Below, piece by piece: positions 12,336-38,304 of a stretch of 64,000 nucleotides of DNA. The stretch comes from Candidatus Methylomirabilia bacterium. GTDB taxonomy: Bacteria; Methylomirabilota; Methylomirabilia; Rokubacteriales; CSP1-6. The first letter of the stretch is position 1; the number at the start of each line of letters is the position of its first letter. The notes beneath the pieces are model-generated. The model did no database searches and was not told the DNA's origin. It saw only the letters and a list, made by a program, of their open reading frames with translations. The stretch lies in assembly GCA_041496385.1 (NCBI GenBank), contig JBGQEL010000012.1, positions 11,409 through 75,408 on the forward strand. Direction: 5' to 3'. Made by a program: the position numbers and the translations under genes.

Positions 12336-12382
12336 AGTGTATCACAGGCTTGGAGGGGGTCCGCGCTCCGGGACGCTCACCC

Positions 12383-13579
12383 TCACGGCGCCCCCAGGCT
12401 CGCGCGGAACCGGTCGCGGATCTGGCGCGGCGTGTGCGGGATCCGCGGGACATCCACCTCCTCCGGCGTGACCTTCGCCAGGACGAAGCCCGGCCCCGGC
12501 CCGGCCAGCGCCGCCCGCACCGCGGCGGTGAGCGCGTCGGGCGTCGCGACCGCCGTCGCGACACAGCCCGCGGCGCGCGCGATCCGGTCGAGCCGCACCT
12601 CGCGCGAGGGGGAGGGCTGGTTGCCGGTCGAGCCGTAGACCTCGTTGTCGAAGACGACGTGCACGAAGCGAGGCGGGCGCAGGCTGCCGATCGTCCCGAG
12701 GATGCCGAGGTTCATCAGGAGGTTGCCATCGCCGTCGAAGACGACCGTCCGCTTCTCGGGCCGGACGAGCGCGAGCCCCAGGCCGATCGCCGAGGCGAGG
12801 CCCATCGAGCCGATCATGTAGAAGTTCTGCGGCCGGTCGGCGAGCGAGAAGGACTCGCGGCAGATGTAGCCGTTCGCGTGGATCACGGGCTCGTCGCGGA
12901 GCTGCCCGATGGCGACGCCGAGCGCGTCGCGCCGCGACATCACCGGCCGCAACTCCTCGTCCGCCCCCGCCTGTCCCGAATGAATGCCTGCCACCGGGGC
13001 CGGGGTGGTGGTCGGGGGCGGCCCAGTGGGCGTGTCGTTACCGGCAACGGGGCCGCCCCCCCCCACCCCCCCGGCCCCCCTCACGGCGCCAAGATCGAGG
13101 ACTCCGGGGGGAACGAGGATCGCGACCGGTGCTTCGCGCGCGTCCATTTCGGCGCGCGCCCACTGCAACAGCTCCTCGACTCCCTCTCGGGCGAGGACCC
13201 GATGGGGGATGCCGTGGAGCTCGAGAAGCTGCGGCGTGATCCGGCCCGTCAGGATGTGCTCGGGCGCGTCCTTGCCCTCGAAGCCGCGCCACGTGATCAG
13301 CAGCAGGACGGGGAGGCCGTACATGAGGGAGAGCGAAGCCAGGGCGTTCCCGCACGTGCCGAGCCCGGAGTTCTGCATCAGCACCACGGGCCGCCGCCCG
13401 CCGAGCCACGCGCCCGCGGCGAGCCCGATCGCGGCGTCCTCGCGGGCCGCGGCCACGTACGGCGCGCGCGGGCGGCGCTCGAGCGCCGCGACGAGGTCCT
13501 CGATCAACGAGCAGGGAACGCCGGTGAAGAAATCGAATCCGTGACGCTCGAGCAGCGCGGCGAGCTGGGCGCCCGACAC
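12383..13579 (-). CDS. TPP-dependent decarboxylase, sulfopyruvate/phosphonopyruvate decarboxylase family (fused two-domain form with Gly/Pro/Thr-rich linker)
   Basis: 398 aa; N-terminal TPP pyrimidine-binding domain and C-terminal domain with the GDG-N diphosphate-binding motif (VVFDGDGNLLMNLG), no central domain. This is the ComDE/Ppd architecture. The domains are joined by GAGGVGGGGPVAGNDTPTGPPPTTTPAPVAG. Confidence 0.6.
   Translation of the reverse strand: MSGAQLAALLERHGFDFFTGVPCSLIEDLVAALERRPRAPYVAAAREDAAIGLAAGAWLGGRRPVVLMQNSGLGTCGNALASLSLMYGLPVLLLITWRGFEGKDAPEHILTGRITPQLLELHGIPHRVLAREGVEELLQWARAEMDAREAPVAILVPPGVLDLGAVRGAGGVGGGGPVAGNDTPTGPPPTTTPAPVAGIHSGQAGADEELRPVMSRRDALGVAIGQLRDEPVIHANGYICRESFSLADRPQNFYMIGSMGLASAIGLGLALVRPEKRTVVFDGDGNLLMNLGILGTIGSLRPPRFVHVVFDNEVYGSTGNQPSPSREVRLDRIARAAGCVATAVATPDALTAAVRAALAGPGPGFVLAKVTPEEVDVPRIPHTPRQIRDRFRASLGAP
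13055..13080. repeat. homopolymeric tract C9-A-C7-GG-C6 inside the TPP-decarboxylase CDS (encodes GGVGGGGP on the minus strand)
   Basis: Plus-strand gccccccccc a ccccccc gg cccccc. Reverse-complement translation gives GAVRGAGGVGGGGPVAG, matching the ORF. Confidence 0.7.
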
Positions 13580-13613
13580 TATGCCCGGGGGTGCGCGCGC
13601 GGGCCCGGGGCGC

Positions 13614-14252
13614 TCACTTCTGCGAGGTGCGTCGCGCCTGCTCCTCGTGGAACTCGTCCTGCTTGGTCTTCATCTTCCGGACGAGCTCCTGGTAGGACGA
13701 CGTCGTGATGATCTTGTTGAACTGGGCGCGGTAGTTCGCGATGAGGCTCACGCCCTCGATGACGACATCGTAGACGAGCCACCGATCGCCACTGCGTCGC
13801 AGCATCCGGTACTCCACGGGGATGTCGGTGCCGTCCTTGGTGACGAGCTTGCTCCGGACGATCGCCTGATCGTCGTCGATGGTCTCGCCGGTGTACGTGA
13901 TCTTCTCGCCGCCGTAGATCTCGATCCTGGAGATGTACGAGCGCTCCAGGAGGTCGGCGAAGAGGGCGACGAACTCCTCGCGCTCCGCGGCCGTCCGCGA
14001 CGCCCAGTGGCGCGCCAGCGAGCGTTTCGCGGTCTCGCCGAAGTCGAAGACCTCGTTGGCGATCTTGCGGACGGCCGCGCGCCGCTCCCTGACCCGGGTC
14101 TCCTTCTTGAGCTCGGGATCCTCGAGCAGTCGCATGACCCGCTCGATCTGGGCCTTGAGCTGCTCCGTGGGCGGGCCCGCCCACGCCGGGGCCGCGTCCA
14201 GCAGCAGCAGGACGGCGGCGGCACAGACGAGGCCCCGGCTCCGTGGCGTCAT
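13614..14252 (-). CDS. hpnM: MlaC/Ttg2D-family periplasmic lipid-binding protein (HpnM-like)
   Basis: 212 aa with signal peptide (AAAVLLLLDAAPAWAG); Ttg2D/MlaC-like fold motifs; the hopanoid-associated member of this family is HpnM. Confidence 0.65.
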   Translation of the reverse strand: MTPRSRGLVCAAAVLLLLDAAPAWAGPPTEQLKAQIERVMRLLEDPELKKETRVRERRAAVRKIANEVFDFGETAKRSLARHWASRTAAEREEFVALFADLLERSYISRIEIYGGEKITYTGETIDDDQAIVRSKLVTKDGTDIPVEYRMLRRSGDRWLVYDVVIEGVSLIANYRAQFNKIITTSSYQELVRKMKTKQDEFHEEQARRTSQK

Positions 14253-14262
14253 CGAGGATCTC

Positions 14263-14703
14263 CTAAACTTTGCCGAAGATGTACTTGGATAGCAGCTCCT
14301 CGAAGTCGACGGGCGCCTCGACCTCGCGGATCCGGCCGTTCGGCTTGATGATCCGATCCGAGCCTCCGGGGCTGATCCGGAGGTATTTCTCGCCGATCAG
14401 CCCCTTGGTCTTGATCGAGGCGATCGAATCCTCCTGCAGCTTCACGCCCTCGTTGATCCGCAGCGTCACGCGCGCCTGGTAGTCCACCAGACCGATTGCC
14501 TCGATGCGCCCGATCTCGACGCCCGCGATCTCGACGGTCGAGCCCGCCTTCAGTCCGCCCACCGCGGGAAAATCCGCGGTGACGACGTAGGCGCCGCCGC
14601 CGAGCAACGAAACCCGCCCGAGTTTAATCGATAGATACCCCAATGCCAAGATCCCGATCAGCACGAACAGCCCCACCGCGATGTTGACGCGCGACCGCTC
14701 CAT
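14263..14703 (-). CDS. MlaD-like MCE-domain protein
   Basis: ORF 14263..15165; protein starts at internal ATG 14703-14701 (MERSRVNIAVGLFVLIGILALGYL...), one N-terminal TM segment plus MCE domain. Start overlaps the upstream stop by 1 nt (TGATG). Confidence 0.7.
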   Translation of the reverse strand: MERSRVNIAVGLFVLIGILALGYLSIKLGRVSLLGGGAYVVTADFPAVGGLKAGSTVEIAGVEIGRIEAIGLVDYQARVTLRINEGVKLQEDSIASIKTKGLIGEKYLRISPGGSDRIIKPNGRIREVEAPVDFEELLSKYIFGKV

Positions 14704-15446
14704 CAGCTTCCCTCCGAGTCTTCCGGGACGCCCCGGATGAACTGGCTCACGACCGGGTTCTGGGACGCCTGGATCGCCGCCGGGGGGCCGACCTCGACGA
14801 TCCGACCCTCGTGCAGCATGGCGACGCTGTCGGCGATCTCGAAGATCTCCGGGATCTCGTGACTCACCATGACGGCCGTGAAGCGGTACTTCCGGTGGAG
14901 ATCGAGGATCAGGTGGTGGATCGTGTTGACGAGCACCGGATCGAGCCCGGTCGTCGGCTCGTCGAAGAAGACGATCTCGGGCTCGATGACGAGCGCGCGC
15001 GCGATCGCCACGCGCTTGCGCATGCCGCCGGACACCTCGGCCGGATACTTGTGGCCCATGCCCTCCAGGCCGACCTGCTGGAGCCCGGCCTCGACGCGCT
15101 TGACCACCTCCGCCGCGGGCAGCCGGAGCTTCTCGCGCAGGGGGAAGGCGACGTTGCCCGCGCACGTCATCGAGTCGAAGAGCGCGCCCCCCTGGAACAC
15201 GACGCCGTAGCGCCGCCGGATGTCGTCGAGCGCGCGGCCGCGGAGACCGGTGATCTCGACGCCGTCCACGAGCACGCGGCCCGCGTCGGGGCTCAGCAGG
15301 CCGATCAGGTGCTTGAGGAGCACCGACTTGCCGCCGCCGCTCCGCCCGATGATCACCGTGATCGAGCCGGTCGCCATCTCGAGGTCGAGGCCGCGGAGCA
15401 CCGGCTGGCCGCCGAACGACTTCACCAGCCCCTCGACCACGATCAT
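14703..15446 (-). CDS. MlaF-like ABC transporter ATP-binding protein
   Basis: 247 aa; Walker A GRSGGGKS, ABC signature LSGGMRKRVAIARAL, Walker B IVFFDEPT. Confidence 0.8.
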   Translation of the reverse strand: MIVVEGLVKSFGGQPVLRGLDLEMATGSITVIIGRSGGGKSVLLKHLIGLLSPDAGRVLVDGVEITGLRGRALDDIRRRYGVVFQGGALFDSMTCAGNVAFPLREKLRLPAAEVVKRVEAGLQQVGLEGMGHKYPAEVSGGMRKRVAIARALVIEPEIVFFDEPTTGLDPVLVNTIHHLILDLHRKYRFTAVMVSHEIPEIFEIADSVAMLHEGRIVEVGPPAAIQASQNPVVSQFIRGVPEDSEGS

Positions 15447-15533
15447 GGACTCGCCTCGGACGGCGGGGCCCCAGCCCCGCGACGCCCTGCGGCTCGCGCG
15501 GCCACGATCATCGGCTCGCCTCGGACGGCGGGC

Positions 15534-16328
15534 TCACGGCAGCACCGAGCCCAAGAAGTAGTCCCAGACCAGGATCAGGACCGAGGAGAGCACGACCGCG
15601 TCCGTCGTCGCCTTGGCGACGCCCTCGGCGCCGTGCCCGACGTTGAAGCCCTTGTAGGTGCAGACCCACATGACGATCACGCCGAAGGACAGCGACTTCC
15701 AGAAGCCGGTCATGATGTCCTTCATGTCGACGAAGGTCTGCATCTCGCCGAAGTACGTGCCCTGGGACAGCCCCAGCAGCTCGACGCCCACGAGGTAGCC
15801 GCCGAAGATGCCGACCGTGTCGAAGATTGCCGTCATCAGCGGGAAGGTCACGATGCCGGCGAGGATGGACGGCGCCACGAGATAGCGCATGGGGTTGAGC
15901 GCCATGACGGTGAGCGCGTCGATCTGCTCGGTGATGCGCATGATCCCGATCTCGGCGGTGAGCGCCGAGCCGGCGCGGCCCGTCACCATGAGCGCCGCGA
16001 GCACGGGACCCAGCTCGCGGATGATCGAGAGCGCGACGGCCGGGCCGAGGTACGCCTCGGAGCCGAAGCGGACGAGCGTCAGGTAGACCTGGAGCCCGAG
16101 GACCATGCCGGTGAAGGAGCCGGTCAGGAGGATGATCAGGAGCGATCGGTAGCCGACGTAGTGGATCCGGTCGATGAACGCCCGGAGCTTGAACGGCGGA
16201 GTCAGGAGCGCGCCCAGCGCCTCGCCCAGGAAGCTGCCGAAGCGACCGAGCGCCTCGACGATCGCGATCGCCCAGCGGCCGAGGGCGTCGAGCGGGGCCA
16301 GCGCCAGCGGGAGCGGCCGCTCAGTCAT
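15534..16328 (-). CDS. MlaE-like ABC transporter permease
   Basis: C-terminal 264 codons of ORF 15534..17684, from ATG 16328 (MTERPLPL...). MlaE/Ttg2B-type permease pattern (ITEQIDAL.VMALNP). ATG overlaps the shc stop (ATGA). Confidence 0.75.
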   Translation of the reverse strand: MTERPLPLALAPLDALGRWAIAIVEALGRFGSFLGEALGALLTPPFKLRAFIDRIHYVGYRSLLIILLTGSFTGMVLGLQVYLTLVRFGSEAYLGPAVALSIIRELGPVLAALMVTGRAGSALTAEIGIMRITEQIDALTVMALNPMRYLVAPSILAGIVTFPLMTAIFDTVGIFGGYLVGVELLGLSQGTYFGEMQTFVDMKDIMTGFWKSLSFGVIVMWVCTYKGFNVGHGAEGVAKATTDAVVLSSVLILVWDYFLGSVLP

Positions 16329-18244
16329 CGCTGGACGCTGCGGTAGACCCCGAGCGCCCAGAGGGGGAAGTACTTCGCGTAGAGGTGGTACTTGAGGTAG
16401 AAGACGCGCGGGAATCCCGTGCCGTTCCAGAGCCGATCGTCCCAGGAGCCGTCGGGCTGCTGCGCCTGCAGGAGATAGAGGACGCCGCGCTCGATGGCGC
16501 GGCCGCCCGTCCGGCCCGCGGCGAAGAGCGCCAGGAGCGCCCAGGCGGTCTGGCTCGGCGTCGACTCGCCGCTCCCGGCCAGCTCGGCGTCGTCGTAGCT
16601 CTCGCAGGTCTCGCCCCAGCCGCCGTCGGGGTTCTGTTGCCGCTCGAGCCAGCGGACCGCCCGCTGCACGTACTCGTGGCGCAGATCCTCGCCGATCGCC
16701 CTCAGGCCGCGGAGCACCGACCACGTTCCGTAGATGTAGTTGACGCCCCAGCGGCCCTCCCAGGGCCCGTCGTGCCGCTGCGCGTGGCGCAGAAAGTGGA
16801 TCGCGCGCCGCGCCGGCTCGAAGTCCGTGCCGTAACCCAGCGTGCCGAGGAGCTCGAGCCCGCGCCCCGTGAGGTCCTCCGTCGAGGGGTCGAGCAGCGC
16901 TCCGTGATCGGCGAAGGGGATGTTGTTCAGATAGAGGCGGTTGTTGTCGGCGTCGAACGAGCCCCAGCCGCCGTCCTCGCCCTGCATGCCGAGGAACCAG
17001 CCGAGGCCGAGCTCCTTCGCCGTCTGGGCGGCGTCGCCGTCGAGACCCCGCACCTTCTCCAGCGCCATCAGGACCATCGCCGTGTCGTCGAGGTCGGGAT
17101 AGAAGTCGTTGCGGTACTGGAACGCCCAGCCGCCGGGTTTCACGTGCGGCCGCTTCACCTGCCAGTCGCCCGGCACGAGCACCTGACGGTCGATGAGCCA
17201 CTCGGCGGCGCGCCGCAGCGTCGGGTCCTCGGGCGCGACTCCGCTCTCGACCAGCGCGTTGACGGTGAGCGCCGTGTCCCAGACGGGCGACGGGCAGGGC
17301 TGATAGTGAATCTCCTCGCCCTCCTCGACCGCGAGCGCCTCGATCTCCTTGATCTGCCCCATGACCAGCGGGTGATCGTCGGGGTAGCCCAGCAGCCGCA
17401 TCGCCAGGATCGAGTTGGCCATCGCCGGATAGATGCCGCCCAGGCCGCCGGGGACGGCGAGCCGCTCCTCGAGCCAGAGACGCGCCGCGTCGACCGCCCG
17501 CTTCCGGAGCGGGCGCTTCGTGAACCGCTCCCAGATCTTCAGGCCGTCGTCCACCGAGACGAAGAAGTTCTTCCAGAAGAGCTTGCGCCAGCTGAAGGGC
17601 TCCGGCACCCGCGGGAAGCGCAGGCTCGTCCGCTCGCGCGAGTCCGGCCAGAGCTCGTCGAGCGAGAGGTGGGGCGGGAGCCACTTCACCGGCTTGCGGT
17701 CCATGATGATCAGGAGGGGCACGATGACGGTCCGCGACCAGTACGAGACCTCGTAGATATTGAAGAGGAAGAAGGGGCGCGGCAGCAGCATGATCTCGAC
17801 CGGCATCGCGGGCACGCCGTTCCAGTCGTACTCGCCGAAGAGCGCCAGCAGGATCTTGGTGAAGACGTCGCTCTTCACGGGCCCGCCCATGTCGTGGATC
17901 CGCCCGCGCGCCGCCACCATCGCGGGGTCGTCCACGCCGACACCGGCCAGCTTCATCGCGAAGTAGGCCTTGATGGTCGCCGACAGATTCGACGGGCCGT
18001 CCTCGAAGAGGTTCCAGCCGCCGTCCGGGAGCTGGCGGCGGCGGAGGTAGTGGACGGCCTTGGCCTCGCGCTTGCGGTCCACACGGTCGATCAGGTGGCA
18101 GAGCAGGAGGAACTCGGACGTGATGGTCGTGTTGGCCTCGAGCTGGCCGACCCAGTGACCGTCGGGGGCCTGATGCGCCAGGAGCCAGGACTGGGCGCGC
18201 GCGATCGCGTCGGTGAGGGCCGTCACGAGGGCTGATGGTAACAT
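16325..18244 (-). CDS. shc: squalene-hopene cyclase
   Basis: 639 aa; DxDDTA catalytic motif (DLDDTAMVLMAL) and multiple QW repeats; N-terminus MLPSALVTALTDAIARAQSWLLAHQAPDGHW. Confidence 0.9.
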   Translation of the reverse strand: MLPSALVTALTDAIARAQSWLLAHQAPDGHWVGQLEANTTITSEFLLLCHLIDRVDRKREAKAVHYLRRRQLPDGGWNLFEDGPSNLSATIKAYFAMKLAGVGVDDPAMVAARGRIHDMGGPVKSDVFTKILLALFGEYDWNGVPAMPVEIMLLPRPFFLFNIYEVSYWSRTVIVPLLIIMDRKPVKWLPPHLSLDELWPDSRERTSLRFPRVPEPFSWRKLFWKNFFVSVDDGLKIWERFTKRPLRKRAVDAARLWLEERLAVPGGLGGIYPAMANSILAMRLLGYPDDHPLVMGQIKEIEALAVEEGEEIHYQPCPSPVWDTALTVNALVESGVAPEDPTLRRAAEWLIDRQVLVPGDWQVKRPHVKPGGWAFQYRNDFYPDLDDTAMVLMALEKVRGLDGDAAQTAKELGLGWFLGMQGEDGGWGSFDADNNRLYLNNIPFADHGALLDPSTEDLTGRGLELLGTLGYGTDFEPARRAIHFLRHAQRHDGPWEGRWGVNYIYGTWSVLRGLRAIGEDLRHEYVQRAVRWLERQQNPDGGWGETCESYDDAELAGSGESTPSQTAWALLALFAAGRTGGRAIERGVLYLLQAQQPDGSWDDRLWNGTGFPRVFYLKYHLYAKYFPLWALGVYRSVQR

Positions 18245-18271
18245 GTTGACTCGTCGAGTGAAAATGCTCTC

Positions 18272-19075
18272 ATGGATCTAGTCCTCGAAACCATCGCCCT
18301 GCGTCCTTACGTCTTCGGCTTCATGGCGGCGTTTCTCATCGCCGGCTGCCTCGACCTCGGGTGGCGGCGGACGCTCCTGTTCGGGGCCGTGGTCTCGCCG
18401 ATCGCGTGGCTCGCGGAGTTCTCCTCGACGCGCACGGGGATTCCGTTCGGGCTCTACACCTACACCGGCGCGACGCGCGGCGCGGAGCTCTACGTCGCCG
18501 ACGTGCCGTTCATGGACTCGATCTCGTTCGCCTTCCTCGCGTACGCCGCGTTCTGCCTGGCCCGCGCGGCCCTCGCGCGCCGGTCGCCCGGCCGCTGGGC
18601 GCTCGCCCTGAGGACGGGAGTGCTCATGATGGCGCTCGACGTCGTCATCGACCCGCTGGCCGTCCGCGGCGACCGCTGGTTTCTCGGACGGATCTTCTAC
18701 TACGCCGACGGCGGCGCGTACTTCGGCGTGCCCCTGTCGAACTTCGCGGGATGGGTCCTCGTCGGCGCCGTGGCAGTCGGCCTCTATCTGCTTCTGCCGG
18801 GGTCCGCGAGGCCGGCGCCAACCGCGGGTGGCCGGCAATGGGCACACGGGGCTCCCCTCGCGATGTCCCCCGTCGGCGAACGTGTCTGGCCGGGAGTCGC
18901 GCTATACTACGTCGTGCTCGGATTCAATTTGGCCGTGACCGCGTGGATCGGCGAATGGATGCTGGTCGCTCTCGGGTCCGCGCTCCACGCCGCGGTCGCC
19001 GTGGCCATCCGCTACGCGGGCCGGGAACACCGGGAGGCCCCGGTCATCCCGAGCCGGGGAGTTCAGCGCGCATGA
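18272..19075 (+). CDS. polytopic membrane protein, DUF422 / carotenoid-biosynthesis-protein-like (family uncertain)
   Basis: 267 aa, ~7 hydrophobic segments; divergent from shc; its stop overlaps the hpnH start (ATGA). Confidence 0.5.
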   Translation: MDLVLETIALRPYVFGFMAAFLIAGCLDLGWRRTLLFGAVVSPIAWLAEFSSTRTGIPFGLYTYTGATRGAELYVADVPFMDSISFAFLAYAAFCLARAALARRSPGRWALALRTGVLMMALDVVIDPLAVRGDRWFLGRIFYYADGGAYFGVPLSNFAGWVLVGAVAVGLYLLLPGSARPAPTAGGRQWAHGAPLAMSPVGERVWPGVALYYVVLGFNLAVTAWIGEWMLVALGSALHAAVAVAIRYAGREHREAPVIPSRGVQRA

Positions 19076-20094
19076 GCGTTCCGATCTCGCAGATGTGGGC
19101 CGTCGCCTCGTACGTCCTGGGGCAGCGCCTCCGGGGCCACGCGCGGTACCCGCTCGTGCTCATGCTCGAGCCGCTGTTCCGGTGCAACCTGGCGTGCGCC
19201 GGCTGCGGCAAGATCCAGTACCCGGCGCAGATTCTCCGCAAGCACCTGACCGTCGAGCAGTGCCTCGCCGCGGTCGAGGAGTGCGGCGCGCCGATGGTGT
19301 CGATCCCGGGGGGCGAGCCGCTCATGTATCCGGACATCGGGCCGCTCGTGAAGGCGCTCGTCGCCCGCAAGAAGTACGTCTACCTCTGCACCAACGCGAT
19401 CCTGCTGAAGGAGAAGCTCGAGGCCGGCCTGTTCGAGCCGTCCAAGTACCTCTCGTTCAGCGTGCACATGGACGGGCTGCGCGAGGAGCACGACGAGGCC
19501 GTCTGCCGCGACGGCGTCTACGACCAGGCGGTGGAAGGGATCCGCGCGGCACTCCGGCGGGGCTTCCGCGTGACGACGAACACGACGCTCTTCGACGGCG
19601 GGAACCCCCTGCGCATGCGCGAGTTCTTCGACGCCATGATGGACCTCGGCGTCGAGGGAATGATGATCTCGCCGGGCTACAGCTACTCGAAGGCGCCCGA
19701 CCAGGAGCACTTCCTCCGTCGCCAGCGCGCCCACGAGCTGTTCGGGACGATGCTCGGGAACCCGAAGAAACGCTGGAAGTTCAACCAGTCCCCGCTCTTC
19801 CTCCAGTTCCTCATGGGCAAGCAGGAGTTCGAGTGCACGCCCTGGGGGAACCCGACCTACAACATGTTCGGCTGGCAGCGCCCCTGCTACCTCCTGCAGG
19901 AGGGATACGCGAAGACCTTCCGCGAGCTGATCGAGACGACGCGGTGGGAGCAGTACGGGCGCAAGAGCGGCAACGAGAAGTGCCGCGACTGCATGGTCCA
20001 CTGCGGCCACGAGCCGACGGCGGTGCACCACACCTTCAGCTCGTGGCGCGGCCTGCGCGACACGGTCGTCACGACGGTCACGGGCCGCCTCTAG
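19072..20094 (+). CDS. hpnH: adenosylhopane synthase, radical SAM HpnH
   Basis: C-terminal 340 codons of ORF 18361..20094, from ATG 19072 (MSVPISQMWAVASYVLGQRLRG...). YPLVLMLEPLFRCNLACAGCGKIQ radical-SAM region is characteristic of HpnH. Confidence 0.85.
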   Translation: MSVPISQMWAVASYVLGQRLRGHARYPLVLMLEPLFRCNLACAGCGKIQYPAQILRKHLTVEQCLAAVEECGAPMVSIPGGEPLMYPDIGPLVKALVARKKYVYLCTNAILLKEKLEAGLFEPSKYLSFSVHMDGLREEHDEAVCRDGVYDQAVEGIRAALRRGFRVTTNTTLFDGGNPLRMREFFDAMMDLGVEGMMISPGYSYSKAPDQEHFLRRQRAHELFGTMLGNPKKRWKFNQSPLFLQFLMGKQEFECTPWGNPTYNMFGWQRPCYLLQEGYAKTFRELIETTRWEQYGRKSGNEKCRDCMVHCGHEPTAVHHTFSSWRGLRDTVVTTVTGRL

Positions 20095-20103
20095 CCCCCG
20101 GCG

Positions 20104-20433
20104 ATGACGGACGAGGCGCTCGAGGGCTGGGCCCCGCGGATCGGCGACGGGATCACGCTCGAGGAGGTCGTCGAGCAGGCCTTCGACTACCGCGGCAACG
20201 TCACGCTCGTGAAGACCGACGGCTCCGAGCTCGAGGGCTACCTGTTCAACCGCAGCCGCGACGTCGGCGAGCCCTTCGTCCAGATCTTCGACCTCGCCGG
20301 CGTCGGCCCCCACGACGTCCGCTACGCCGACATCCGCACCATCCGCTTCACGGGCAAGGACACGGCGGCCGGGAACTCGTACGCGGCCTGGCTCCGCGCC
20401 AAGGAGTCCAAGAAGCCGGCCTCGGGCGCGTGA
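20104..20433 (+). CDS. hypothetical protein (109 aa) embedded in hpn operon
   Basis: Intact ORF 10 nt after the hpnH stop, acidic N-half; its stop overlaps the hpnG GTG start (GTGA). No family recognised. Confidence 0.5.
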   Translation: MTDEALEGWAPRIGDGITLEEVVEQAFDYRGNVTLVKTDGSELEGYLFNRSRDVGEPFVQIFDLAGVGPHDVRYADIRTIRFTGKDTAAGNSYAAWLRAKESKKPASGA

Positions 20434-21110
20434 CACACGTCGCCGTCTTCACCGCCGTCGAGCTCGAGGCCCGCACGCTCGCGCGGCTGCTCGGCCTGCC
20501 TCGCGTCGCGGGCGCCGCGTGGCCGCACTTCGGCGCGGGCGCCCTGGAGATCGTCTGCGCCGGTCCCCGCGCGCGCTTCCTCGACGACCGCGCGCGGGGG
20601 CTGGCGGCCCCCACGCTGGTCGTCTCGGCGGGCGTCTGCGGCGCGCTCTCGCCGGACCTGCGCGAGGGCGATCTGGTCGTGCCCGCGACCGTCCTCGGCC
20701 CGGCGGGCGAGCGCCACGCCACCGCCGAGCTTGCCGGGCTGCCGCGCGCGGGCGCGCTGGCGAGCGTGAGGGACGTGGTCGCGACGCCGGCGGCGAAGGC
20801 GCGCCTCTGGGTCGAGACGCAGGCCCTCGCGTGCGACATGGAATCGGCGGCCATCCTCGCGTGGGCGGGCGCGCGCGGGATCCCGGCCGCGGTGATCCGC
20901 GGCGTCAGCGACGCGGCGGACCGGGGCGTGCCGCGAGACCTCGCGGCGGTCGTCGAGCCCGACGGGCGCGTCCACACCGCGCGCGCGGTGCGCGCGATGC
21001 TCGCGCGGCCGCGCGCGATCGCCGACGCGATGACGCTGCGGACCGGCACCGGCGCCGCGCTGAAGGCCGTCGCGCAGGCGTTGGGCCGCCTCGCGAGGCA
21101 CCGGGCGTGA
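20430..21110 (+). CDS. hpnG: hopanoid-associated nucleosidase/phosphorylase HpnG (PNP/MTAN family)
   Basis: In-frame part of ORF 19095..21110, from GTG 20430 (VTHVAVFTAVELEARTL...). PNP/MTA-nucleosidase-type fold motifs (AVIRGVSD) in the expected position between hpnH and hpnA. Confidence 0.7.
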   Translation: MTHVAVFTAVELEARTLARLLGLPRVAGAAWPHFGAGALEIVCAGPRARFLDDRARGLAAPTLVVSAGVCGALSPDLREGDLVVPATVLGPAGERHATAELAGLPRAGALASVRDVVATPAAKARLWVETQALACDMESAAILAWAGARGIPAAVIRGVSDAADRGVPRDLAAVVEPDGRVHTARAVRAMLARPRAIADAMTLRTGTGAALKAVAQALGRLARHRA

Positions 21111-22114
21111 TCGCGCTGGTCACGGGCGGCACCGGGTTCGTGGGGGCCAACCTCGTGCGCGAGCTCCTCCGGGACCGGCGCGCCGTGCGCGTCCTCGCGC
21201 GGCCGGGCGGCGATCGGCGCGCGCTGGCCGGGCTCGACGTCGAGATCTGCGAGGGCGACCTGCTCGATCCTGCCTCGCTCCGCCGCGCGGTGCGGGGCGC
21301 GGACACGATCTTCCACGTCGCGGCCGACTACCGCCTGTGGGCGCGCGACCCCGGCGAGATGCACCGCGCGAACGTGGGCGGCACGCGCGCCATCCTCGAG
21401 GCGGCGGCGGAGCACGGCGCGCGGCGCGTGGTCTACACGTCGACGGTCGGCGCCCTCGGCATCCCGAAGGACGGCTCGCCGGGCACGGAGGACACGCCGG
21501 TCTCGCTGCGCGACATGGTCGGCCCGTACAAGACGTCGAAGTTCATCGCCGAGCAGGTGGCGCTGGGCTTCGCGCAGCAGGGTCTGCCGCTGGTGATCGT
21601 GAACCCTTCGGCGCCCGTCGGCCCGTGGGACGTGAAGCCCACGCCGACCGGGCAGATGATCGTGGATTTCCTCAGCGGCCGGATGGTCGCGACGCTCGAC
21701 ACGGGGCTCAACCTGATCCACGTGCGCGACGTCGCGCGCGGGCACATCCTCGCGGCCGAGCGCGGTCGCGTCGGCGAGAAGTACATCCTCGGCCACGCGG
21801 ACCTGTCCCTCGCCGAGATCGGGCTGCTCCTCTCCGAGGTCACCGGGATCCGTCCGCCGCGCCTCCGGGTCCCCTACGCGGTGGCCTGGCTCGCGGCCGC
21901 GTCCATGGAGGCGGCGGCCCGGCTGACGGGCGGCGCGCCCCGGGTGCCGCTGACCGCGGTGCGCATGGCGAAGAAGCGCATGTACTTCAGCGCGGCCCGG
22001 GCGGTGCGCGAGCTGGGGCTGCCGCAGACCGACGTGCGCGAGGCGCTGCGCGACGCGGCGGAGTGGTTTTCGGCGCGCGGCTATGTCAAGCTCCCGGCGA
22101 GGCAGACGGCATGA
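21107..22114 (+). CDS. hpnA: hopanoid-associated NAD-dependent sugar epimerase/dehydratase HpnA
   Basis: From GTG 21107 (VIALVTGGTGFVGANLVREL...); Rossmann GxxGxxG and YxxxK (YKTSK) SDR-extended motifs; GTG overlaps the hpnG stop. Confidence 0.75.
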   Translation: MIALVTGGTGFVGANLVRELLRDRRAVRVLARPGGDRRALAGLDVEICEGDLLDPASLRRAVRGADTIFHVAADYRLWARDPGEMHRANVGGTRAILEAAAEHGARRVVYTSTVGALGIPKDGSPGTEDTPVSLRDMVGPYKTSKFIAEQVALGFAQQGLPLVIVNPSAPVGPWDVKPTPTGQMIVDFLSGRMVATLDTGLNLIHVRDVARGHILAAERGRVGEKYILGHADLSLAEIGLLLSEVTGIRPPRLRVPYAVAWLAAASMEAAARLTGGAPRVPLTAVRMAKKRMYFSAARAVRELGLPQTDVREALRDAAEWFSARGYVKLPARQTA

Positions 22115-22998
22115 TCGCCGACCTCGCCGCGCGGCTCACCCGGAAGAGCCGGTCGAACTTCTACTACGCGTTCCTCGCGCTGCCGCGGCCGCGCCGCGAG
22201 GCGCTCTACGCCGTCTACGCGTTCTGCCGCACGGTCGACGACATCGCCGACCTGGGCGGCGCGCGGGGCGGGGGTCCGGCGGCGCAGCGGGACGAGCTCG
22301 CCCGCTGGCGCGCGGACGTCCTGCGCTGCTACACCCCCGACGGCTCGCCCGAGCATCCGCTCGCGCGCCGGCTCCAGGCCGCGGTGCGCGCCTTCGCGAT
22401 CCCGCGCGAGGCGCTGCTGGCGATCATCGAGGGCGTCGAGATGGACCTCGACCGGGTCGTGTACGAGACCGCCGAGGACCTCTATCCCTACTGCTATCGC
22501 GTCGCGTCGGCCGTCGGCCTCTGCTGCATCGAGATCTTCGGCTACACCGACCCCCGCGCGCGCGAGTACGCCGTCCGCCTCGGCACGGCGCTCCAGCTCA
22601 CGAACATCATCCGTGACGTCGGCGCGGATGCGCGCGACGGCCGCGTGTACCTGCCGCTGGAGGATCTCCGCAAGTTCGGCGTCACCGTCGACGACCTCCG
22701 CACGGGACGCTACGGCGAGCCCTTCGTCGCGCTCATGGCCCACCAGGCGGAACGCGCCCGGCGGTTCTACCGGCTCGCGCGGGAGAGCTTCCCGGCGGCC
22801 GACGCGCGCGCGCTCGTGCCCGCCGAGATCATGGGGCGCATCTACCGGGCGCTCCTCGAGGAGATCGAGGCGCGCCGCTTCCGCGTCTTCGACCGGCGGA
22901 TCACCGTACCGGCGCGGCGGAAGGTCGCCATCGCCCTCGTCTGCTGGGCGTCGGCCCGGATGGCCGCGCGCGCGGCGGGACGGCCGGGGGCCGCATGA
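22111..22998 (+). CDS. squalene/phytoene synthase family protein (HpnC/HpnD-like)
   Basis: From ATG 22111 (MIADLAARLTRKSRSNFYYAF...). Asp-rich motifs YAFCRTVDDIAD and NIIRDVGADARDGRVYLP; ATG overlaps the hpnA stop (ATGA). The only member of this family in the window. Confidence 0.75.
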   Translation: MIADLAARLTRKSRSNFYYAFLALPRPRREALYAVYAFCRTVDDIADLGGARGGGPAAQRDELARWRADVLRCYTPDGSPEHPLARRLQAAVRAFAIPREALLAIIEGVEMDLDRVVYETAEDLYPYCYRVASAVGLCCIEIFGYTDPRAREYAVRLGTALQLTNIIRDVGADARDGRVYLPLEDLRKFGVTVDDLRTGRYGEPFVALMAHQAERARRFYRLARESFPAADARALVPAEIMGRIYRALLEEIEARRFRVFDRRITVPARRKVAIALVCWASARMAARAAGRPGAA

Positions 22999-24005
22999 TC
23001 GCCGCCGTCCTGCGCGAGGGAGGGCGGCTCGCCGCCGAGGAGTGGCCCCGCCCGTCGATCGGCGCCGGCGAGGTGCTGCTCCGCCTCCGGGGCTGCGGCC
23101 TCTGCGGCTCGGACATCGCGAAGATCGTGGACCCGCGGACGCCCGTGCCGCTCGTGCTGGGCCACGAGGTCGTCGGCGAGGTGGCGGCGACGGGCGCCGG
23201 CGTGACGGACTACGCGATCGGTGACCGCGTCGCCGCGGCGCACCACGTGCCCTGCGGCGACTGTCACTACTGCCGGCGCGGCAGCGAGTCCATGTGCCGC
23301 ACCTTCAAGGCGTCGAACCTCGACCCCGGCGGCTTCGCCGAGTACGTCCGGATCCCGGAGCCGAACGTGCGGCACGCCATGTTCCGCGTGCCGCGGCACG
23401 TGAGCGACGAGGCGGCCTCGTTCGTCGAGCCGCTGGCGTGCTGCCTGCGCTCCCTGCGGCGCGCGCGCGTCGAGCGCGGCGACACGACCGTGGTGGTCGG
23501 GCTCGGCTCGATCGGCTGCCTGTTCGTCCAGCTCCTCGCGAACGCCGGCGTGCGCGTCGTCGGCTGCGACCCGGTCGCCGACCGCGCGGACGTCGCCAGG
23601 CGGATGGGCGCCGTGGCCGCCGGAGGGGCCGAGGTCGCCGTGGCGGCGCAGCGCGAGCTCTCCGAGGGCCGCGGCGCCGACCAGGTCATCGTGACCGGCG
23701 GCGGCGTGGACGTCCTGCCCTGGGCGGCCGACGTCCTGCGCGACGGCGGCAGCGTCCACTACTTCGCCGGCGGCGCGGGCGACGCGCTGCCGCTCCGGCT
23801 CGAGACGCTCTATCACCGCGAGCTCACTGTCACCGCGACCTACTCGTCCTCGCCCGCCGACCTCGCGGAGGCCTTCCGGCTCATCGCGAGTGGCGCGGTC
23901 GCGCCCGAGCGGCTCGTCACCCACCGGCTCTCGCTCGGCGGCCTGCACCGCGGCGTGGAGCTGATGCGCCGCCGCGAGGCGCTCAAGGTGTACGTGACGC
24001 CGTGA
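22995..24005 (+). CDS. Zn-dependent alcohol/polyol dehydrogenase (MDR family) 1
   Basis: 336 aa; catalytic Zn ligands (C..GHE), structural-Zn cysteines CGDCHYCRRGSESMC, GLGSIG Rossmann; ATG overlaps the upstream stop (ATGA). Confidence 0.75.
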   Translation: MIAAVLREGGRLAAEEWPRPSIGAGEVLLRLRGCGLCGSDIAKIVDPRTPVPLVLGHEVVGEVAATGAGVTDYAIGDRVAAAHHVPCGDCHYCRRGSESMCRTFKASNLDPGGFAEYVRIPEPNVRHAMFRVPRHVSDEAASFVEPLACCLRSLRRARVERGDTTVVVGLGSIGCLFVQLLANAGVRVVGCDPVADRADVARRMGAVAAGGAEVAVAAQRELSEGRGADQVIVTGGGVDVLPWAADVLRDGGSVHYFAGGAGDALPLRLETLYHRELTVTATYSSSPADLAEAFRLIASGAVAPERLVTHRLSLGGLHRGVELMRRREALKVYVTP

Positions 24006-25027
24006 GGGCGATGGTCTTTCACGGCCCGGGCGACCTCCGCCACGAGGAGCTCCCCCTGCCCGAGCCCGCGGCGGGTGAGCTCGTGCTGCGGATCGACGCG
24101 GCCCTCACGTGCGGCACCGACGTGAAGACGCTCCGGCGCGGTCATCCGGTGATGATCCCGACCGTTCCGACCGTGTTCGGTCACGAGCTGGCGGGCACCG
24201 TCACCGCGGTCGGCGCGGGTGTGCGGCGCTTCCACGAGGGCGACCGCGTGGTCGCGGCCAACTCGGCGCCGTGCGGCGACTGCCGCCTCTGCCTCGCGGG
24301 CCGGCCGAATCTCTGCGAGGACCTCCTCTTCGTCAACGGCGCGTACGGCGAGTTCATCGCGCTGCCGCCGCGCCTCGTGGCCCGGAACGTCGTCCCGCTC
24401 GGGCGCGGGCTGCCCGCGTCGCGCGCGGCGTTCGCCGAGCCGCTCGCCTGCGCGCTCCTCGGCGTGGAGCGCGCGCGGGTGGAGTCGGGCCAGACGGTCG
24501 CCGTCTTCGGTCACGGGCCGCTGGGCTGTCTCCTGGCCATGGTCGCGGCCGCGCGGAAGGCGCGCGTGCTGCTCGTCGGCAAGGCGGGCTGGCGGCTCGA
24601 CCGGGTGCGCGAGCTCGGGATCGGCGAGTGCCTCGACGCGAGCCGAACGGACAGCGTTGTCGCGCACATCCGTGAGGCGACGGGGGGCCGGGGCGCCGAG
24701 GTCGCGATCGACGCGACGGGCCGGCCCGAGGTGTGGGAGCAGGCCGTCGATGCGACGGCCCGCGGGGGCAGCGTGGTATTCTTTGGAGGCTGTGCGCCCG
24801 GCACGTCGATCCGGCTGGACACGCGCCGCGCGCATTACGAAGAACTCACGCTCCTGGGGGCGTTCCATCACACGCCCGAGCTGATCCGTCGGGCGGTCGA
24901 CCTCATGGAGGCCGGGGTGCTGGTGCCTGACGGCCTGATCACCCACCGGATGCCGCTCGAGGCCGTCAGACAGGCGCTCGACCTCATGGCGCGGGGTGAG
25001 GCGCTGAAGGTGCTGATCGAACCATGA
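24002..25027 (+). CDS. Zn-dependent alcohol/polyol dehydrogenase (MDR family) 2
   Basis: From GTG 24002 / ATG 24011 (MRAMVFHGPGDL...). GHELAG, CGDCRLCLAGRPNLC, GHGPLG motifs; the start overlaps the upstream stop. Confidence 0.75.
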   Translation: MRAMVFHGPGDLRHEELPLPEPAAGELVLRIDAALTCGTDVKTLRRGHPVMIPTVPTVFGHELAGTVTAVGAGVRRFHEGDRVVAANSAPCGDCRLCLAGRPNLCEDLLFVNGAYGEFIALPPRLVARNVVPLGRGLPASRAAFAEPLACALLGVERARVESGQTVAVFGHGPLGCLLAMVAAARKARVLLVGKAGWRLDRVRELGIGECLDASRTDSVVAHIREATGGRGAEVAIDATGRPEVWEQAVDATARGGSVVFFGGCAPGTSIRLDTRRAHYEELTLLGAFHHTPELIRRAVDLMEAGVLVPDGLITHRMPLEAVRQALDLMARGEALKVLIEP

Positions 25028-25626
25028 CGAAGCTGATGGTCTCCGCGGTGGCGCTCGTGGCCCTCGCGACGCTGGCCGCGCCGGCGCGGGCCTTCGACGC
25101 CGCGGACACCTTCAGGAAGGGCACGCTCGTCCTCTCCGGCGAGGGCAGCTACGGCGAGCAGTTCAACCTCGAGCGGTTCCGCGTCCAGAGCGACATCAAG
25201 TTCTTCAACCTGGGGTTCCGATCCTCGCTCCTGCCCTTCGAGCCCTTCGCCGCCGGGAGCGCCGCGCACGGCGCGCTCGAGATCGGGCTCGAGCCGCTCT
25301 ACCAGCGCTACACGGAACCCCAGACCGCCTTCTGGGCCGGCGTCGCGGCGGTCTTCCGCTACCACTTCCTGGCGCTCGGCCGCGTCGTCCCGTACGCGGA
25401 GCTCGCCGCGGCCGCGGGCGGCACCGACCTCCACGTGCGGGAGATCGACTCGGACTTCTCGTTCCTCCTGTTCGGCGGCCTCGGCGCGTCGGTCTTCGTC
25501 ACCGACTCGACCGCGCTCTACGCCGGCTACCGGTACGAGCACAACTCCAACGGCAACACGGCCACGCCGAACCGGGGCTGGGAGTCGCACGTGGGCGTGG
25601 TCGGCGTGTCGTACTATTTCCGCTGA
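25024..25626 (+). CDS. outer-membrane beta-barrel protein, lipid A deacylase PagL-like
   Basis: 200 aa; signal peptide MTKLMVSAVALVALATLAAPARA; C-terminal aromatic YYFR; H-x-S-N-G (EHNSNGN) resembling the PagL catalytic His/Ser motif. ATG overlaps the upstream stop (ATGA). Confidence 0.45.
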   Translation: MTKLMVSAVALVALATLAAPARAFDAADTFRKGTLVLSGEGSYGEQFNLERFRVQSDIKFFNLGFRSSLLPFEPFAAGSAAHGALEIGLEPLYQRYTEPQTAFWAGVAAVFRYHFLALGRVVPYAELAAAAGGTDLHVREIDSDFSFLLFGGLGASVFVTDSTALYAGYRYEHNSNGNTATPNRGWESHVGVVGVSYYFR

Positions 25627-25639
25627 GGCGGGGGGGCCG

Positions 25640-26632
25640 ATGAGATCCGCGATCACCGAGATCCTGCTGGCCGGGCCGCGCGGCTTCTGCGCCGGCGTGG
25701 AGCGCGCCATCGACATCGTCGAGCTGGCGCTGTCCCTCTGCCCGCCGCCCGTCTACGTGCGCAAGGAGATCGTCCACAACCGGCTCGTCGTCGACACGCT
25801 GCGCGAGCAGGGGGCGATCTTTGTCGACGAGCTCGACGAGGTTCCGGACGGGGCGACGGTCGTCTTCAGCGCCCACGGCATCTCCCCCGCGGTCCGCGAG
25901 GACGCCCGGCGGCGCGGCCTCCGTGCGATCGACGCCACGTGCCCGCTCGTCACCAAGGTGCACCTCGAGGCGATCCGCTACGCGCGCGAGAACTACTCGA
26001 TCGTCCTCATCGGCCACCAGGACCACGACGAGGTCATCGGCACGCTCGGCGAGGCGCCCGAGCGCATCTTCGTCGTCGCCAGCGCCGCCGAGGCCCAGAA
26101 GCTCGAGGTGCCGGACCCGGACAAGATCGCCTACCTCACCCAGACCACGCTCTCCATCGACGACACGCGCGAGGTCATCGAAGCGCTCCGGCACCGGTTC
26201 CCGAGGATCGTCGGCCCGTCGCGCGACGACATCTGCTACGCGACGCAGAACCGGCAGGCCGCGGTCAAGCGGCTCGCGAACGACGTCGACCTGCTGCTCG
26301 TGATCGGGTCGGCCAACAGCTCGAACGCCATCCGGCTGGTGGAGGTGGCCCGGACCGCGGGCACGCGCGCCTACCTCATCAACGACGTGCGCGACATCCG
26401 GCCGGACTGGCTGGCGGGCGTGGGGCGGGTCGGCGTCACGGCCGGCGCCTCGACGCCCGAGGTCCTCGTGAGCGAGACCGTCGCGGCGCTCCGCGGGAGC
26501 GACGTGTCCGTGCGCGAGGTCCACGTGGTCGAGGAAGACGTGCGCTTCGCGCTGCCCCAGGAACTCGACAAGATCGCGCGCGAGCGCGGTGTGCCCCTGC
26601 CGTCCCGGGACGCGATGCGCCGCTCGCTCTAG
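25640..26632 (+). CDS. ispH: 4-hydroxy-3-methylbut-2-enyl diphosphate reductase
   Basis: 330 aa; LytB/IspH motifs (GFCAGVERAI, three conserved Cys regions); 13 nt after the PagL-like gene. Confidence 0.9.
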   Translation: MRSAITEILLAGPRGFCAGVERAIDIVELALSLCPPPVYVRKEIVHNRLVVDTLREQGAIFVDELDEVPDGATVVFSAHGISPAVREDARRRGLRAIDATCPLVTKVHLEAIRYARENYSIVLIGHQDHDEVIGTLGEAPERIFVVASAAEAQKLEVPDPDKIAYLTQTTLSIDDTREVIEALRHRFPRIVGPSRDDICYATQNRQAAVKRLANDVDLLLVIGSANSSNAIRLVEVARTAGTRAYLINDVRDIRPDWLAGVGRVGVTAGASTPEVLVSETVAALRGSDVSVREVHVVEEDVRFALPQELDKIARERGVPLPSRDAMRRSL

Positions 26633-32878: not shown

Positions 32879-32885
32879 TCGGCTG

Positions 32886-34052: not shown

Positions 34053-34086
34053 GCGCGCGCGCCGCGCGCATTCAGCGGAGGCCGCG

Positions 34087-35343: not shown

Positions 35344-35364
35344 GCCGGCGGAAAGGGAAGCGCG

Positions 35365-35949
35365 ATGCCGATCATCCTGACGCTGCTCCTCGGACTCGCC
35401 GTGGCGGGGACCGCGTGGGCCGGGCCGCTCGACGCGCCGGGCGCCGGCAAGACGCTCGTCTGCAGCGCCTGCCACGGCCCGAACGGCCAGAGCCCGTCCA
35501 GCACCATGCCGATCCTCGCGGGCATGGCGCCCTGGTCCTTCTCGAAAGCGATCCAGGACTATGCCGCGGGCCGGCGGCCCTCGCCGGAGATGGAGCCGTA
35601 CGCGAAACAGGTGCTTCAGTCCGGCCTCGACGAGATCGCGGCGTTCTTCGCGGCGCAGCCGCGGCAGCCGTCGGCCGTGCGGCCCGACGCCGCCGCCGTC
35701 GAGCGCGGCCGCGCGGCCGCCGCCCAGTGTGTCGTCTGCCATGGCGCGAACGGACGGGGCGACGCGGCCAAGGGCATTCCCGACATCACGGGACAGCCCG
35801 CGGGCTATCTCCGGAACCAGATGCTGCTCTTCAAGTCGGACCGGCGGAACCCGAACGACCAGACGCTCAAGGCCCTGAAGGCGCTCTTCGCCACGCTGCC
35901 GGACGCGCAGCTCGCGGACCTCGCGGCCTACTACTCGAGCCTCAGGTAG
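35365..35949 (+). CDS. dihaem cytochrome c (FccA-like partner of FccB)
   Basis: 194 aa; signal peptide; two CxxCH motifs (CSACH, CVVCH). Confidence 0.6.
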   Translation: MPIILTLLLGLAVAGTAWAGPLDAPGAGKTLVCSACHGPNGQSPSSTMPILAGMAPWSFSKAIQDYAAGRRPSPEMEPYAKQVLQSGLDEIAAFFAAQPRQPSAVRPDAAAVERGRAAAAQCVVCHGANGRGDAAKGIPDITGQPAGYLRNQMLLFKSDRRNPNDQTLKALKALFATLPDAQLADLAAYYSSLR

Positions 35950-38297: not shown

Positions 38298-38304
38298 GGC
38301 GCCC

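Follow-up and report, generated by a model that had tools for sequence, protein, structure and literature searches.

A conserved tandem of zinc-dependent dehydrogenase genes accompanies the hopanoid biosynthesis operon of Rokubacteria: a candidate cassette for side-chain chemistry

The hopanoid operon and its dehydrogenase pair

The 64-kb window analysed here, a stretch of 64,000 nucleotides from a contig of a Candidatus Methylomirabilia bacterium, carries an hpn operon for hopanoid biosynthesis at positions 18272-26632 of the plus strand (Table 1). The locus is a new, lineage-specific version of the known hopanoid biosynthetic cluster, with several accessory genes. Among these are two adjacent genes, adh1 and adh2, which follow hpnD directly and encode zinc-dependent alcohol dehydrogenases (ADHs) of the medium-chain dehydrogenase/reductase (MDR) type. 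The reading preferred here, tentatively and short of calling it probable, is that this pair is a polyol-dehydrogenase cassette that may have been recruited to act on the ribose-derived side chain of hopanoids.

Hopanoids are major bacterial membrane lipids whose fossils are widely used as biomarkers, and the Rokubacteria are abundant uncultured soil bacteria. If the side-chain reading is true, Rokubacteria may make side-chain-modified hopanoids. The accessory genes of the operon provide a short list of candidates for the reduction of ribosylhopane and for the origin of the stereoisomers of bacteriohopanetetrol (BHT), and the natural loci without ADH1 or without both ADHs are ready-made comparators.

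The GC content is ~72% across the window. The window proteins are identical to those encoded by one Joint Genome Institute (JGI) soil-metagenome contig, and their closest relatives all come from metagenome-assembled genomes (MAGs) of Candidatus Rokubacteria/Methylomirabilota. The original prediction, made from the sequence alone, described ten consecutive genes in the region, and all ten are real. The open reading frames are present with starts and stops as described, and they have a coding signature, with a GC content of 0.88-0.99 at the third codon position (GC3) and a higher value at the first position than at the second (GC1 > GC2). Two of the gene labels were revised. The gene called 'sqs' encodes HpnD rather than a generic squalene synthase, the score with the HpnC profile (182 bits) being under the cutoff of 250, and the family of the first gene, then called 'DUF422', is Pfam PF04240 (Caroten_synth) today. 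For the HpnG-like protein, the HpnG profile is the best NCBIfam match, though below its cutoff, and a PNP_UDP_1 domain is present; the position of its gene, near hpnH and hpnA, is conserved in related loci. The plus-strand genes most likely form one polycistronic unit, divergent from shc-mlaEFDC-MIPS-hpnN, where shc encodes squalene-hopene cyclase (SHC) and MIPS is the gene for myo-inositol-3-phosphate synthase. A scan of the window with Rfam gave no match.

Conservation and loss across Rokubacteria

A scan anchored on ADH1, with one genome per species and with genes mapped by tblastn, gave 60 loci, ~45 of them from Rokubacteria/Methylomirabilota. In these ~45 species genomes the gene order is shc, on the divergent strand, followed by cruF-like, hpnH, orf109, hpnG, hpnA, hpnD, adh1, adh2, (pagL-like) and ispH, and the identity of ADH1 lies between 56% and 88%. 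As a scan anchored on ADH1 is blind to losses of the ADHs, a second scan was anchored on HpnD in metagenome contigs. It yielded only gene orders of the Rokubacteria type, at identities of at least 57%, and 44 of the loci had enough sequence downstream of hpnD. Both ADH1 and ADH2 follow hpnD in 36 of these 44 loci, ADH2 alone is found in four, one of which has a remnant of ADH1, and neither gene is found in the other four (L124, L135, L140 and L142). About one in four related loci has no PagL-like gene or only a degraded one. The CruF-like gene is in nearly all of them and was not detected in L028, L119 and L143.

An absence of the ADH and PagL-like genes from the hpn loci of related genomes was therefore not what was found, as the ~45 genomes and 36 of the 44 metagenome loci carry hpnD-adh1-adh2. 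These results support the conclusion that the ADH and PagL-like genes are not chance neighbours of the hpn genes. They are accessory rather than core members of the Rokubacteria hpn operon, which for the ADH pair is evident from the loci that retain ADH2 alone or neither gene. The natural variants with ADH2 alone also speak against an obligate heteromer of the two enzymes.

In-frame stops or frameshifts were seen in hpnD, hpnG, adh1 or adh2 of four loci, L006 (9115-9966), L008, L017 and L040, and L040 reads through from hpnG to hpnA. Both kinds of defect in these MAG loci are probably assembly errors and not signs of pseudogenes.

Gene overlaps and the start of ADH2

Overlaps of 4 nt had been predicted at seven junctions, at 19072, 20430, 21107, 22111, 22995, 24002 and 25024, and ATGA or GTGA was found at each of them, including the disputed junction at 24002. 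The two junctions that do not overlap are hpnH to orf109 (+9 nt) and pagL-like to ispH (+13 nt). Overlaps of this length occupy seven of the nine operon junctions versus 6 of the 40 other same-strand junctions in the window (Fisher p=5e-4, with gene starts outside the operon set by a heuristic), confirming that the overlaps in the operon exceed chance.

Public gene calls on the identical JGI contig match six of the seven overlaps and put the start of ADH2 at the ATG at 24011, as does the NCBI call. This later start was rejected on comparison of ~40 orthologues. Every intact orthologue has GTG or ATG at the codon matching 24002, where one locus is frameshifted, and residue 4 of ADH2 is M, Q or V among the orthologues, so that the downstream ATG is not conserved. 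The alignment confirms GTG 24002 as the predicted start of ADH2, and the late start is a systematic mis-annotation in some records. The call in locus L149 (10379) likewise uses an internal ATG, three codons past the conserved GTG, and L150 and L151 are called correctly.

Most related loci share the overlaps at three junctions, hpnA/hpnD, hpnD/adh1 and adh1/adh2, and the last two persist even in a deep clade whose other junctions have drifted. Such 4-nt overlaps suggest that translational coupling is favoured, and they do not fix stoichiometry. The stronger claim made initially, of obligate translational coupling and stoichiometric co-expression, is not one that can be read from overlaps, and 4-nt overlaps are present elsewhere in this 72% GC window too. 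Such overlaps are a common feature of GC-rich genomes. Nor is there a reason to expect equimolar amounts of products as different as soluble enzymes, a protein of the inner membrane and a barrel of the outer membrane. The divergent intergenic region between shc and the cruF-like gene (18245-18271) consists of only 27 bp, GTTGACTCGTCGAGTGAAAATGCTCTC, and hence either the promoters of the two operons extend into coding sequence or the mRNA of the cruF-like gene is leaderless.

ADH1 and ADH2 as enzymes

ADH1 and ADH2 are 36% identical and are nearer to each other than either is to any solved structure. The best matches in the PDB, at ~133 bits, are a Thermus ADH, a putative zinc dehydrogenase and sorbitol dehydrogenase. 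In 46 orthologues of ADH1 and 41 of ADH2, the catalytic zinc ligands Cys37, His57, Glu58 and Glu145 and the structural Cys4 site are conserved in 100%, and these ligands show that both proteins should be catalytically intact. At the cofactor-specificity position of the same orthologues, ADH1 has Asp192 in 98%, and ADH2 has Gly192 in 100% and Lys193 in 93%. Going by what is established for MDR enzymes, this suggests that ADH1 is of the NAD(H) type and ADH2 of the NADP(H) type.

ADH1 and ADH2 have the fold and the domains, GroES-like ADH_N and Rossmann ADH_zinc_N, of the MDR polyol dehydrogenases, such as sorbitol dehydrogenase (1pl6/3qe3), ketose reductase (1e3j), galactitol-1-phosphate 5-dehydrogenase (4a2c) and threonine dehydrogenase. 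They also carry the catalytic Cys-His-Glu(-Glu) site for zinc, the four cysteines of the structural site and a GxGxxG motif. The acidic residue of ADH1 and the Gly-Lys of ADH2 parallel the difference between NAD-dependent sorbitol dehydrogenase and NADP-dependent ketose reductase. Unlike the enzymes of solved structure, the two proteins form a conserved heterologous tandem pair, and they reach only ~100-133 bits with any structure. The top NCBIfam match of both is scyllo-inosose 3-dehydrogenase IolM (153 bits, cutoff 450), with threonine dehydrogenase at 144-146 bits. The ADH1-type family is large (1.8 billion cluster representatives were searched), and nearly all members are acidic at the NAD position. 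Single ADH1-like genes with 38-40% identity were found in a phosphotransferase system (PTS)-galactitol operon in Oceanobacillus and beside the genes for a ROK kinase and triose-phosphate isomerase in Ca. Hakubella. Judged by its relatives, the family is best described as one of sugar/polyol dehydrogenases.

The pair outside hpn loci

In Elusimicrobia, adh1 and adh2 occur in the same order, usually overlapping, with 44-46% identity. There they head a riboflavin operon consisting of adh1, adh2, ribD, ribE, ribBA, ribH and nusB, which is divergent from an arginine decarboxylase gene (loci L044, 9989-12048, and L062 and L063, 10001-15705). Riboflavin carries a ribityl chain. The cassette of other metagenomic lineages adjoins nusB, or two ATP-binding cassette (ABC) exporter genes, or a gene of the Beta_elim_lyase/aminotransferase family, or flanks genes for a GH172 glycosidase and a ribose mutarotase (RbsD/FucU). 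In a neighbour-joining tree, the first genes cluster with ADH1 and the second genes with ADH2 across phyla, a split which indicates that the duplication predates those lineages. From this distribution adh1-adh2 appears to be an ancient cassette found in differing operons, which is neither universal in Rokubacteria nor restricted to hopanoid loci.

Proposed role of the dehydrogenase pair

The side chain present after the HpnG step is a ribose substituted at position 5, and that of BHT is the matching ribitol-type tetrol. A role on the side chain is proposed for the ADHs because a ribose- or ribitol-type chain is the kind of substrate that polyol dehydrogenases handle. It is favoured because the cassette is kept after hpnD together with its overlaps, the zinc sites are intact and relatives are found in sugar/polyol contexts. 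By family assignment, IspH and HpnD supply isoprenoid precursors towards squalene, SHC, encoded on the opposite strand, forms diploptene, HpnH attaches a 5'-deoxyadenosyl group, and the HpnG-like protein would take off the adenine, leaving ribosylhopane. An ancestor of the sampled Rokubacteria would have gained the adh1-adh2 cassette after hpnD, and the substrate of the cassette would be the C5 polyol side chain that the hopanoid derives from ribose. ADH2, as the NADPH-type enzyme, would reduce the open-chain aldehyde of ribosylhopane to give BHT, and the NAD-type ADH1 would oxidise a side-chain hydroxyl, most plausibly the penultimate one at C-34, as polyol dehydrogenases do. Together, ADH1 and ADH2 could invert C-34 or yield a keto/oxidised derivative. 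The function of the cassette would be an accessory one, given the lineages that have lost ADH1 or both genes, and the PagL-like barrel, expressed together with the pathway, would act as a lipid esterase in the outer membrane.

BHT-34R and BHT-34S isomers occur, and to our knowledge their genetic basis is not known. A fully specified version of the scheme, in which ADH2 would be an NADPH-dependent ribosylhopane reductase, ADH1 and ADH2 would invert C-34 to give isomers of the BHT-34R type, which serve as biomarkers, and the CruF-like protein would interconvert diplopterol and diploptene for HpnH, is considered unlikely as a whole. The enzyme converting ribosylhopane to BHT has been described as 'not yet established', with no candidates near alphaproteobacterial hpn clusters (PMC12583986), and a 2026 review gives this step as predicted to be non-enzymatic (PMC13459092).

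Several results weigh against a side-chain role. Model hopanoid producers make BHT without such ADH genes in their hpn clusters (PMC12583986). The eight of the 44 metagenome loci that lack ADH1 or both ADHs retain hpnH, orf109, hpnG, hpnA and hpnD where the contig reaches. No hpn genes were found within 8-10 kb of the cassettes of Elusimicrobia or of those adjoining nusB, ABC exporter or aminotransferase genes, and its presence in riboflavin and other contexts implies that the cassette is not intrinsically a hopanoid enzyme pair. No cutoff was reached with the NCBIfam equivalogs (IolM, Tdh, GatD, idonate dehydrogenase and others), the best score being 153 bits versus cutoffs of 380-550, and the assigned cofactor preference rests on one sequence position. 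A scan of 17.5-27.5 kb for consensus sigma-70 promoters and terminators, which turned up 0 promoters and no more terminators than expected by chance, weighs neither way.

The main rival is that the pair is a passenger, with chemistry on sugars or polyols unrelated to hopanoids, such as polyol epimerisation or the metabolism of compatible solutes, which was inserted once and then inherited vertically, so that the conserved overlaps would reflect a compact operon and not a shared pathway. This is quite possible, if somewhat doubtful. In Elusimicrobia the cassette is embedded just as tightly in the riboflavin operon, where stops overlap starts as well, other settings are beside nusB, ABC exporters, an aminotransferase and GH172/RbsD, single relatives of ADH1 belong to catabolic sugar-alcohol operons, and some Rokubacteria hpn operons have lost the cassette with the hpn genes staying. 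Yet the cassette has kept the same slot and the same 4-nt overlap to hpnD across a class-level radiation, with ADH1 identities of 56-89%, whereas over the same span other junctions drifted, an Omp85-family gene was gained, and the PagL-like and CruF-like genes were lost in places. A possibly independent association of a zinc-dependent ADH with hpnCDE would also speak against a mere passenger. In many Acidobacteria, a gene for a zinc-dependent ADH of ~350 aa, 'ug2', precedes hpnC-D-E (Damste et al. 2017, PMC5462960). This 'cluster A', ug2-hpnC-hpnD-hpnE, resembles the Rokubacteria locus in having an MDR-type zinc-dependent ADH beside the squalene-synthesis genes of a hopanoid producer, but ug2 is single and lies upstream of hpnC, unlike the tandem downstream of hpnD, and the two were compared by description only.

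A second alternative concerns head groups, as the original prediction allowed the ADHs to act on the side chain of bacteriohopanepolyols or on a cyclitol/inositol head group. The former part is plausible and the genes are linked to hpn genes in this lineage; the latter found no support. In such a scheme the ADHs would act on myo-inositol made by MIPS, for example converting it from the myo to the scyllo form, for an inositol-bearing hopanoid or envelope lipid. MIPS is conserved in the shc-mla-hpnN operon and a pairing of NAD-type and NADP-type enzymes would suit epimerisation. The match with IolM, the top one for both ADHs, is the only basis for assigning an inositol substrate, and it is far under the cutoff and hardly above that with threonine dehydrogenase. 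None of the genes of the locus was identified as encoding an inositol monophosphatase or an inositol transferase, and MIPS is missing from the Pfam lists of the genes that surround the cassette in lineages other than Rokubacteria. We know of no inositol-linked hopanoid, and a role of this kind is improbable.

The remaining alternative draws on the squalene branch. Of the three-enzyme route via HpnC, HpnD and HpnE, HpnD alone is encoded in the locus, and hpnC, hpnE or a second SQS_PSY gene were found neither in the 64-kb window nor within 10 kb in the ~45 related loci, which agrees with the irregular co-occurrence of HpnC/E with HpnD reported for Rokubacteria (PMC7306690). That the ADHs, with HpnD, would stand in for HpnC and/or HpnE in converting presqualene diphosphate to squalene would fit these absences, the position of hpnD-adh1-adh2 as the most tightly conserved junctions and the place of acidobacterial ug2 ahead of hpnC-D-E, but it is very improbable, since the chemistry does not match (HpnC is a synthase that ionises presqualene diphosphate and HpnE a flavoenzyme, and zinc-dependent MDRs act on alcohols and carbonyls), HpnD stays in the four loci without both ADHs, the cassette occurs where no hpnD is nearby, and hpnC, hpnE or sqs may sit elsewhere in these genomes.

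PagL-like, orf109 and CruF-like members of the operon

The PagL-like protein matches positions 40-135 of the 136 in the Pfam profile, and only its C-terminal two-thirds aligns. It has an H-x-S-x11-E motif (H-N-S-N-G, with Glu at +12), whose spacing equals that of what we take to be the catalytic triad of Pseudomonas aeruginosa PagL, His126-Ser128-Glu140. Among 23 orthologues the His and Ser are invariant and the Glu varies (E/Q/N/D). A phmmer search of the PDB with this protein did not retrieve the solved PagL and gave NspA only (E=0.008). The Pfam family, the signal peptide and the length, that of a small barrel, are shared with the lipid A 3-O-deacylase PagL of P. aeruginosa. Unlike PagL, the PagL-like protein is encoded inside a hopanoid operon with no adjacent lipid A genes, and the Glu is not conserved in its orthologues.

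A deep clade of Rokubacteria has an extra Omp85-family barrel encoded between hpnG and hpnA (NF047779, 145 bits), at ~6400-7587 in L037 and in the same slot in L029-L040, L045 and L048. Outer-membrane barrels, of the Omp85 family or PagL-like, thus recur in Rokubacteria hpn operons.

The small conserved protein Orf109 has 1760 database homologues (E <=0.001), and none of the 120 listed is functionally annotated; the three with organism names, among the matches listed, come from Rokubacteria/NC10 MAGs. In every related locus its gene separates hpnH from hpnG, and it usually overlaps the start of hpnG. An AlphaFold2 model built on an alignment of database homologues (predicted local distance difference test score 76.6) has a helix and a five-stranded bent sheet, and the Foldseek matches of this model, to CapW, Hfq and BrxR, are weak. 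The modelled fold thus bears a weak resemblance to Sm/Hfq-like or WYL-like folds. Given that an unknown gene, 'ug3', follows hpnH in Acidobacteria (PMC5462960), orf109 might, by its position, correspond to ug3.

The CruF-like gene overlaps hpnH in most related loci. Its product shares PF04240 with CruF, the carotenoid 1',2'-hydratase or bisanhydrobacterioruberin hydratase, but differs in scoring far under the cutoffs of the NCBIfam CruF equivalogs (68 vs 155, 59 vs 300 and 55 vs 400 bits) and in being encoded by a gene that overlaps hpnH and is divergent from shc. No match was found with phmmer in the PDB, and none of the window genes that were scanned was identified as a carotenoid gene, the neighbours of the cruF-like gene being shc and hpnH. 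HpnH needs an olefin, diploptene, as its substrate. By analogy with the hydratases, and as speculation, the CruF-like protein might convert diploptene and diplopterol into each other; a literature search gave no paper that connects CruF with hopanoids.

The divergent strand and the wider hopanoid locus

Table 1. Features of the hopanoid locus in the 64-kb window, with profile scores.
Feature	Position	Strand	Basis
HpnJ, B12/radical-SAM enzyme of BHT cyclitol ether formation	5605-7041	+	TIGR03471, 788 bits (cutoff 578)
GT28/monogalactosyldiacylglycerol (MGDG)-synthase-like glycosyltransferase	7285-8481	-	PF06925, 87 bits; NF010135, 216 bits (cutoff 500)
HpnN-like resistance-nodulation-division (RND) hopanoid transporter	8478-11228	-	TIGR03480 best match, 563 bits (cutoff 752)
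Myo-inositol-3-phosphate synthase (MIPS), between mlaC and hpnN	11229-12341	-	TIGR03450, 514 bits (cutoff 638)
Thiamine pyrophosphate (TPP)-dependent decarboxylase, phosphonopyruvate/sulfopyruvate decarboxylase-like	12383-13669	-	TIGR03297, 289 bits (cutoff 312)
MlaE, MlaF, MlaD and MlaC/HpnM-like lipid ABC transport genes, downstream of shc	13614-16328	-	
Squalene-hopene cyclase (shc)	16325-18244	-	TIGR01507, 763 bits (cutoff 431); 27 bp from cruF-like start
CruF-like membrane protein, first operon gene	18272-19075	+	PF04240 Caroten_synth, 97.8 bits (cutoff 25)
HpnH, radical-SAM adenosylhopane synthase	19072-20094	+	TIGR03470, 527 bits (cutoff 225); Radical_SAM and DUF3463 domains
Orf109, small conserved protein	20104-20433	+	No Pfam/NCBIfam match
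HpnG-like nucleoside phosphorylase	20430-21110	+	PF01048, 61 bits; TIGR03468, 108 bits (cutoff 187)
HpnA, hopanoid-associated short-chain dehydrogenase/reductase (SDR) 'sugar epimerase'	21107-22114	+	TIGR03466, 452 bits (cutoff 368)
HpnD, presqualene diphosphate synthase	22111-22998	+	TIGR03465, 308 bits (cutoff 279)
ADH1, MDR zinc dehydrogenase, polyol-dehydrogenase type	22995-24005	+	ADH_N and ADH_zinc_N
ADH2, MDR zinc dehydrogenase, ADH1 paralogue	24002-25027	+	ADH_N and ADH_zinc_N
PagL-like outer-membrane beta-barrel, predicted esterase	25024-25626	+	PF09411, 47.7 bits (cutoff 23); signal peptide
IspH (LytB), final enzyme of the methylerythritol phosphate (MEP) pathway, last operon gene	25640-26632	+	NF002189, 445 bits (cutoff 444); TIGR00216, 329 bits

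The canonical hpn clusters of Zymomonas mobilis, Rhodopseudomonas palustris, Burkholderia cenocepacia and Alphaproteobacteria (PMC12583986, PMC13459092) share SHC, HpnH, HpnA, HpnD, HpnJ and an IspH encoded in the cluster with the Rokubacteria locus, which also has HpnG-like, HpnN-like and HpnM/MlaC-like proteins. Unlike these clusters, the Rokubacteria window is without hpnC, hpnE, hpnI and hpnK. The additions relative to the canonical clusters are ADH1-ADH2, the PagL-like barrel, the CruF-like protein, Orf109 and a complete MlaFED, together with MIPS, the TPP-dependent decarboxylase and the GT28-like glycosyltransferase. The start of the glycosyltransferase gene overlaps the stop of hpnN by 4 nt, and its product might replace HpnI in the glycosylation of BHT.

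The mlaEFDC genes are conserved in related loci, and the best NCBIfam match of the MlaC-like protein is HpnM (85 bits, cutoff 160). In Proteobacteria, the MlaC/MlaA-like HpnM and HpnS have been proposed as hopanoid shuttles (PMC12324291). The complete Mla-type ABC system found here directly after shc, in one operon, is an instance of such a system being linked to hopanoid genes outside Proteobacteria. The position of MIPS between mlaC and hpnN is kept in L150 and L151 (2359-3432). The gene for the TPP-dependent decarboxylase is a variable member of the locus and is absent from both L150 and L151. A link of this decarboxylase to phosphonate metabolism, through a PEP_mutase/ICL-family gene on the plus strand (46309-47280), was considered and is possible but unsupported; it is weak because the two genes are 33 kb apart, the PEP_mutase/ICL gene is among those of the tricarboxylic acid (TCA) cycle and close relatives lack the decarboxylase.

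The genes past ispH are unrelated to hopanoids. They encode a cupin, a fumarylacetoacetate (FAA) hydrolase, ThrC and elongation factor G (EF-G), and are followed by genes of Sox sulfur oxidation and of the TCA cycle. The sulfur-oxidation block (31478-45003) encodes a rhodanese/beta-lactamase-fold protein, a sulfur transporter, flavocytochrome c sulfide dehydrogenase, TauE, a molybdopterin oxidoreductase with NrfD and 4Fe-4S partners, a SoxXA fusion and SoxB, and the TCA-cycle genes lie after it at 51-63 kb.

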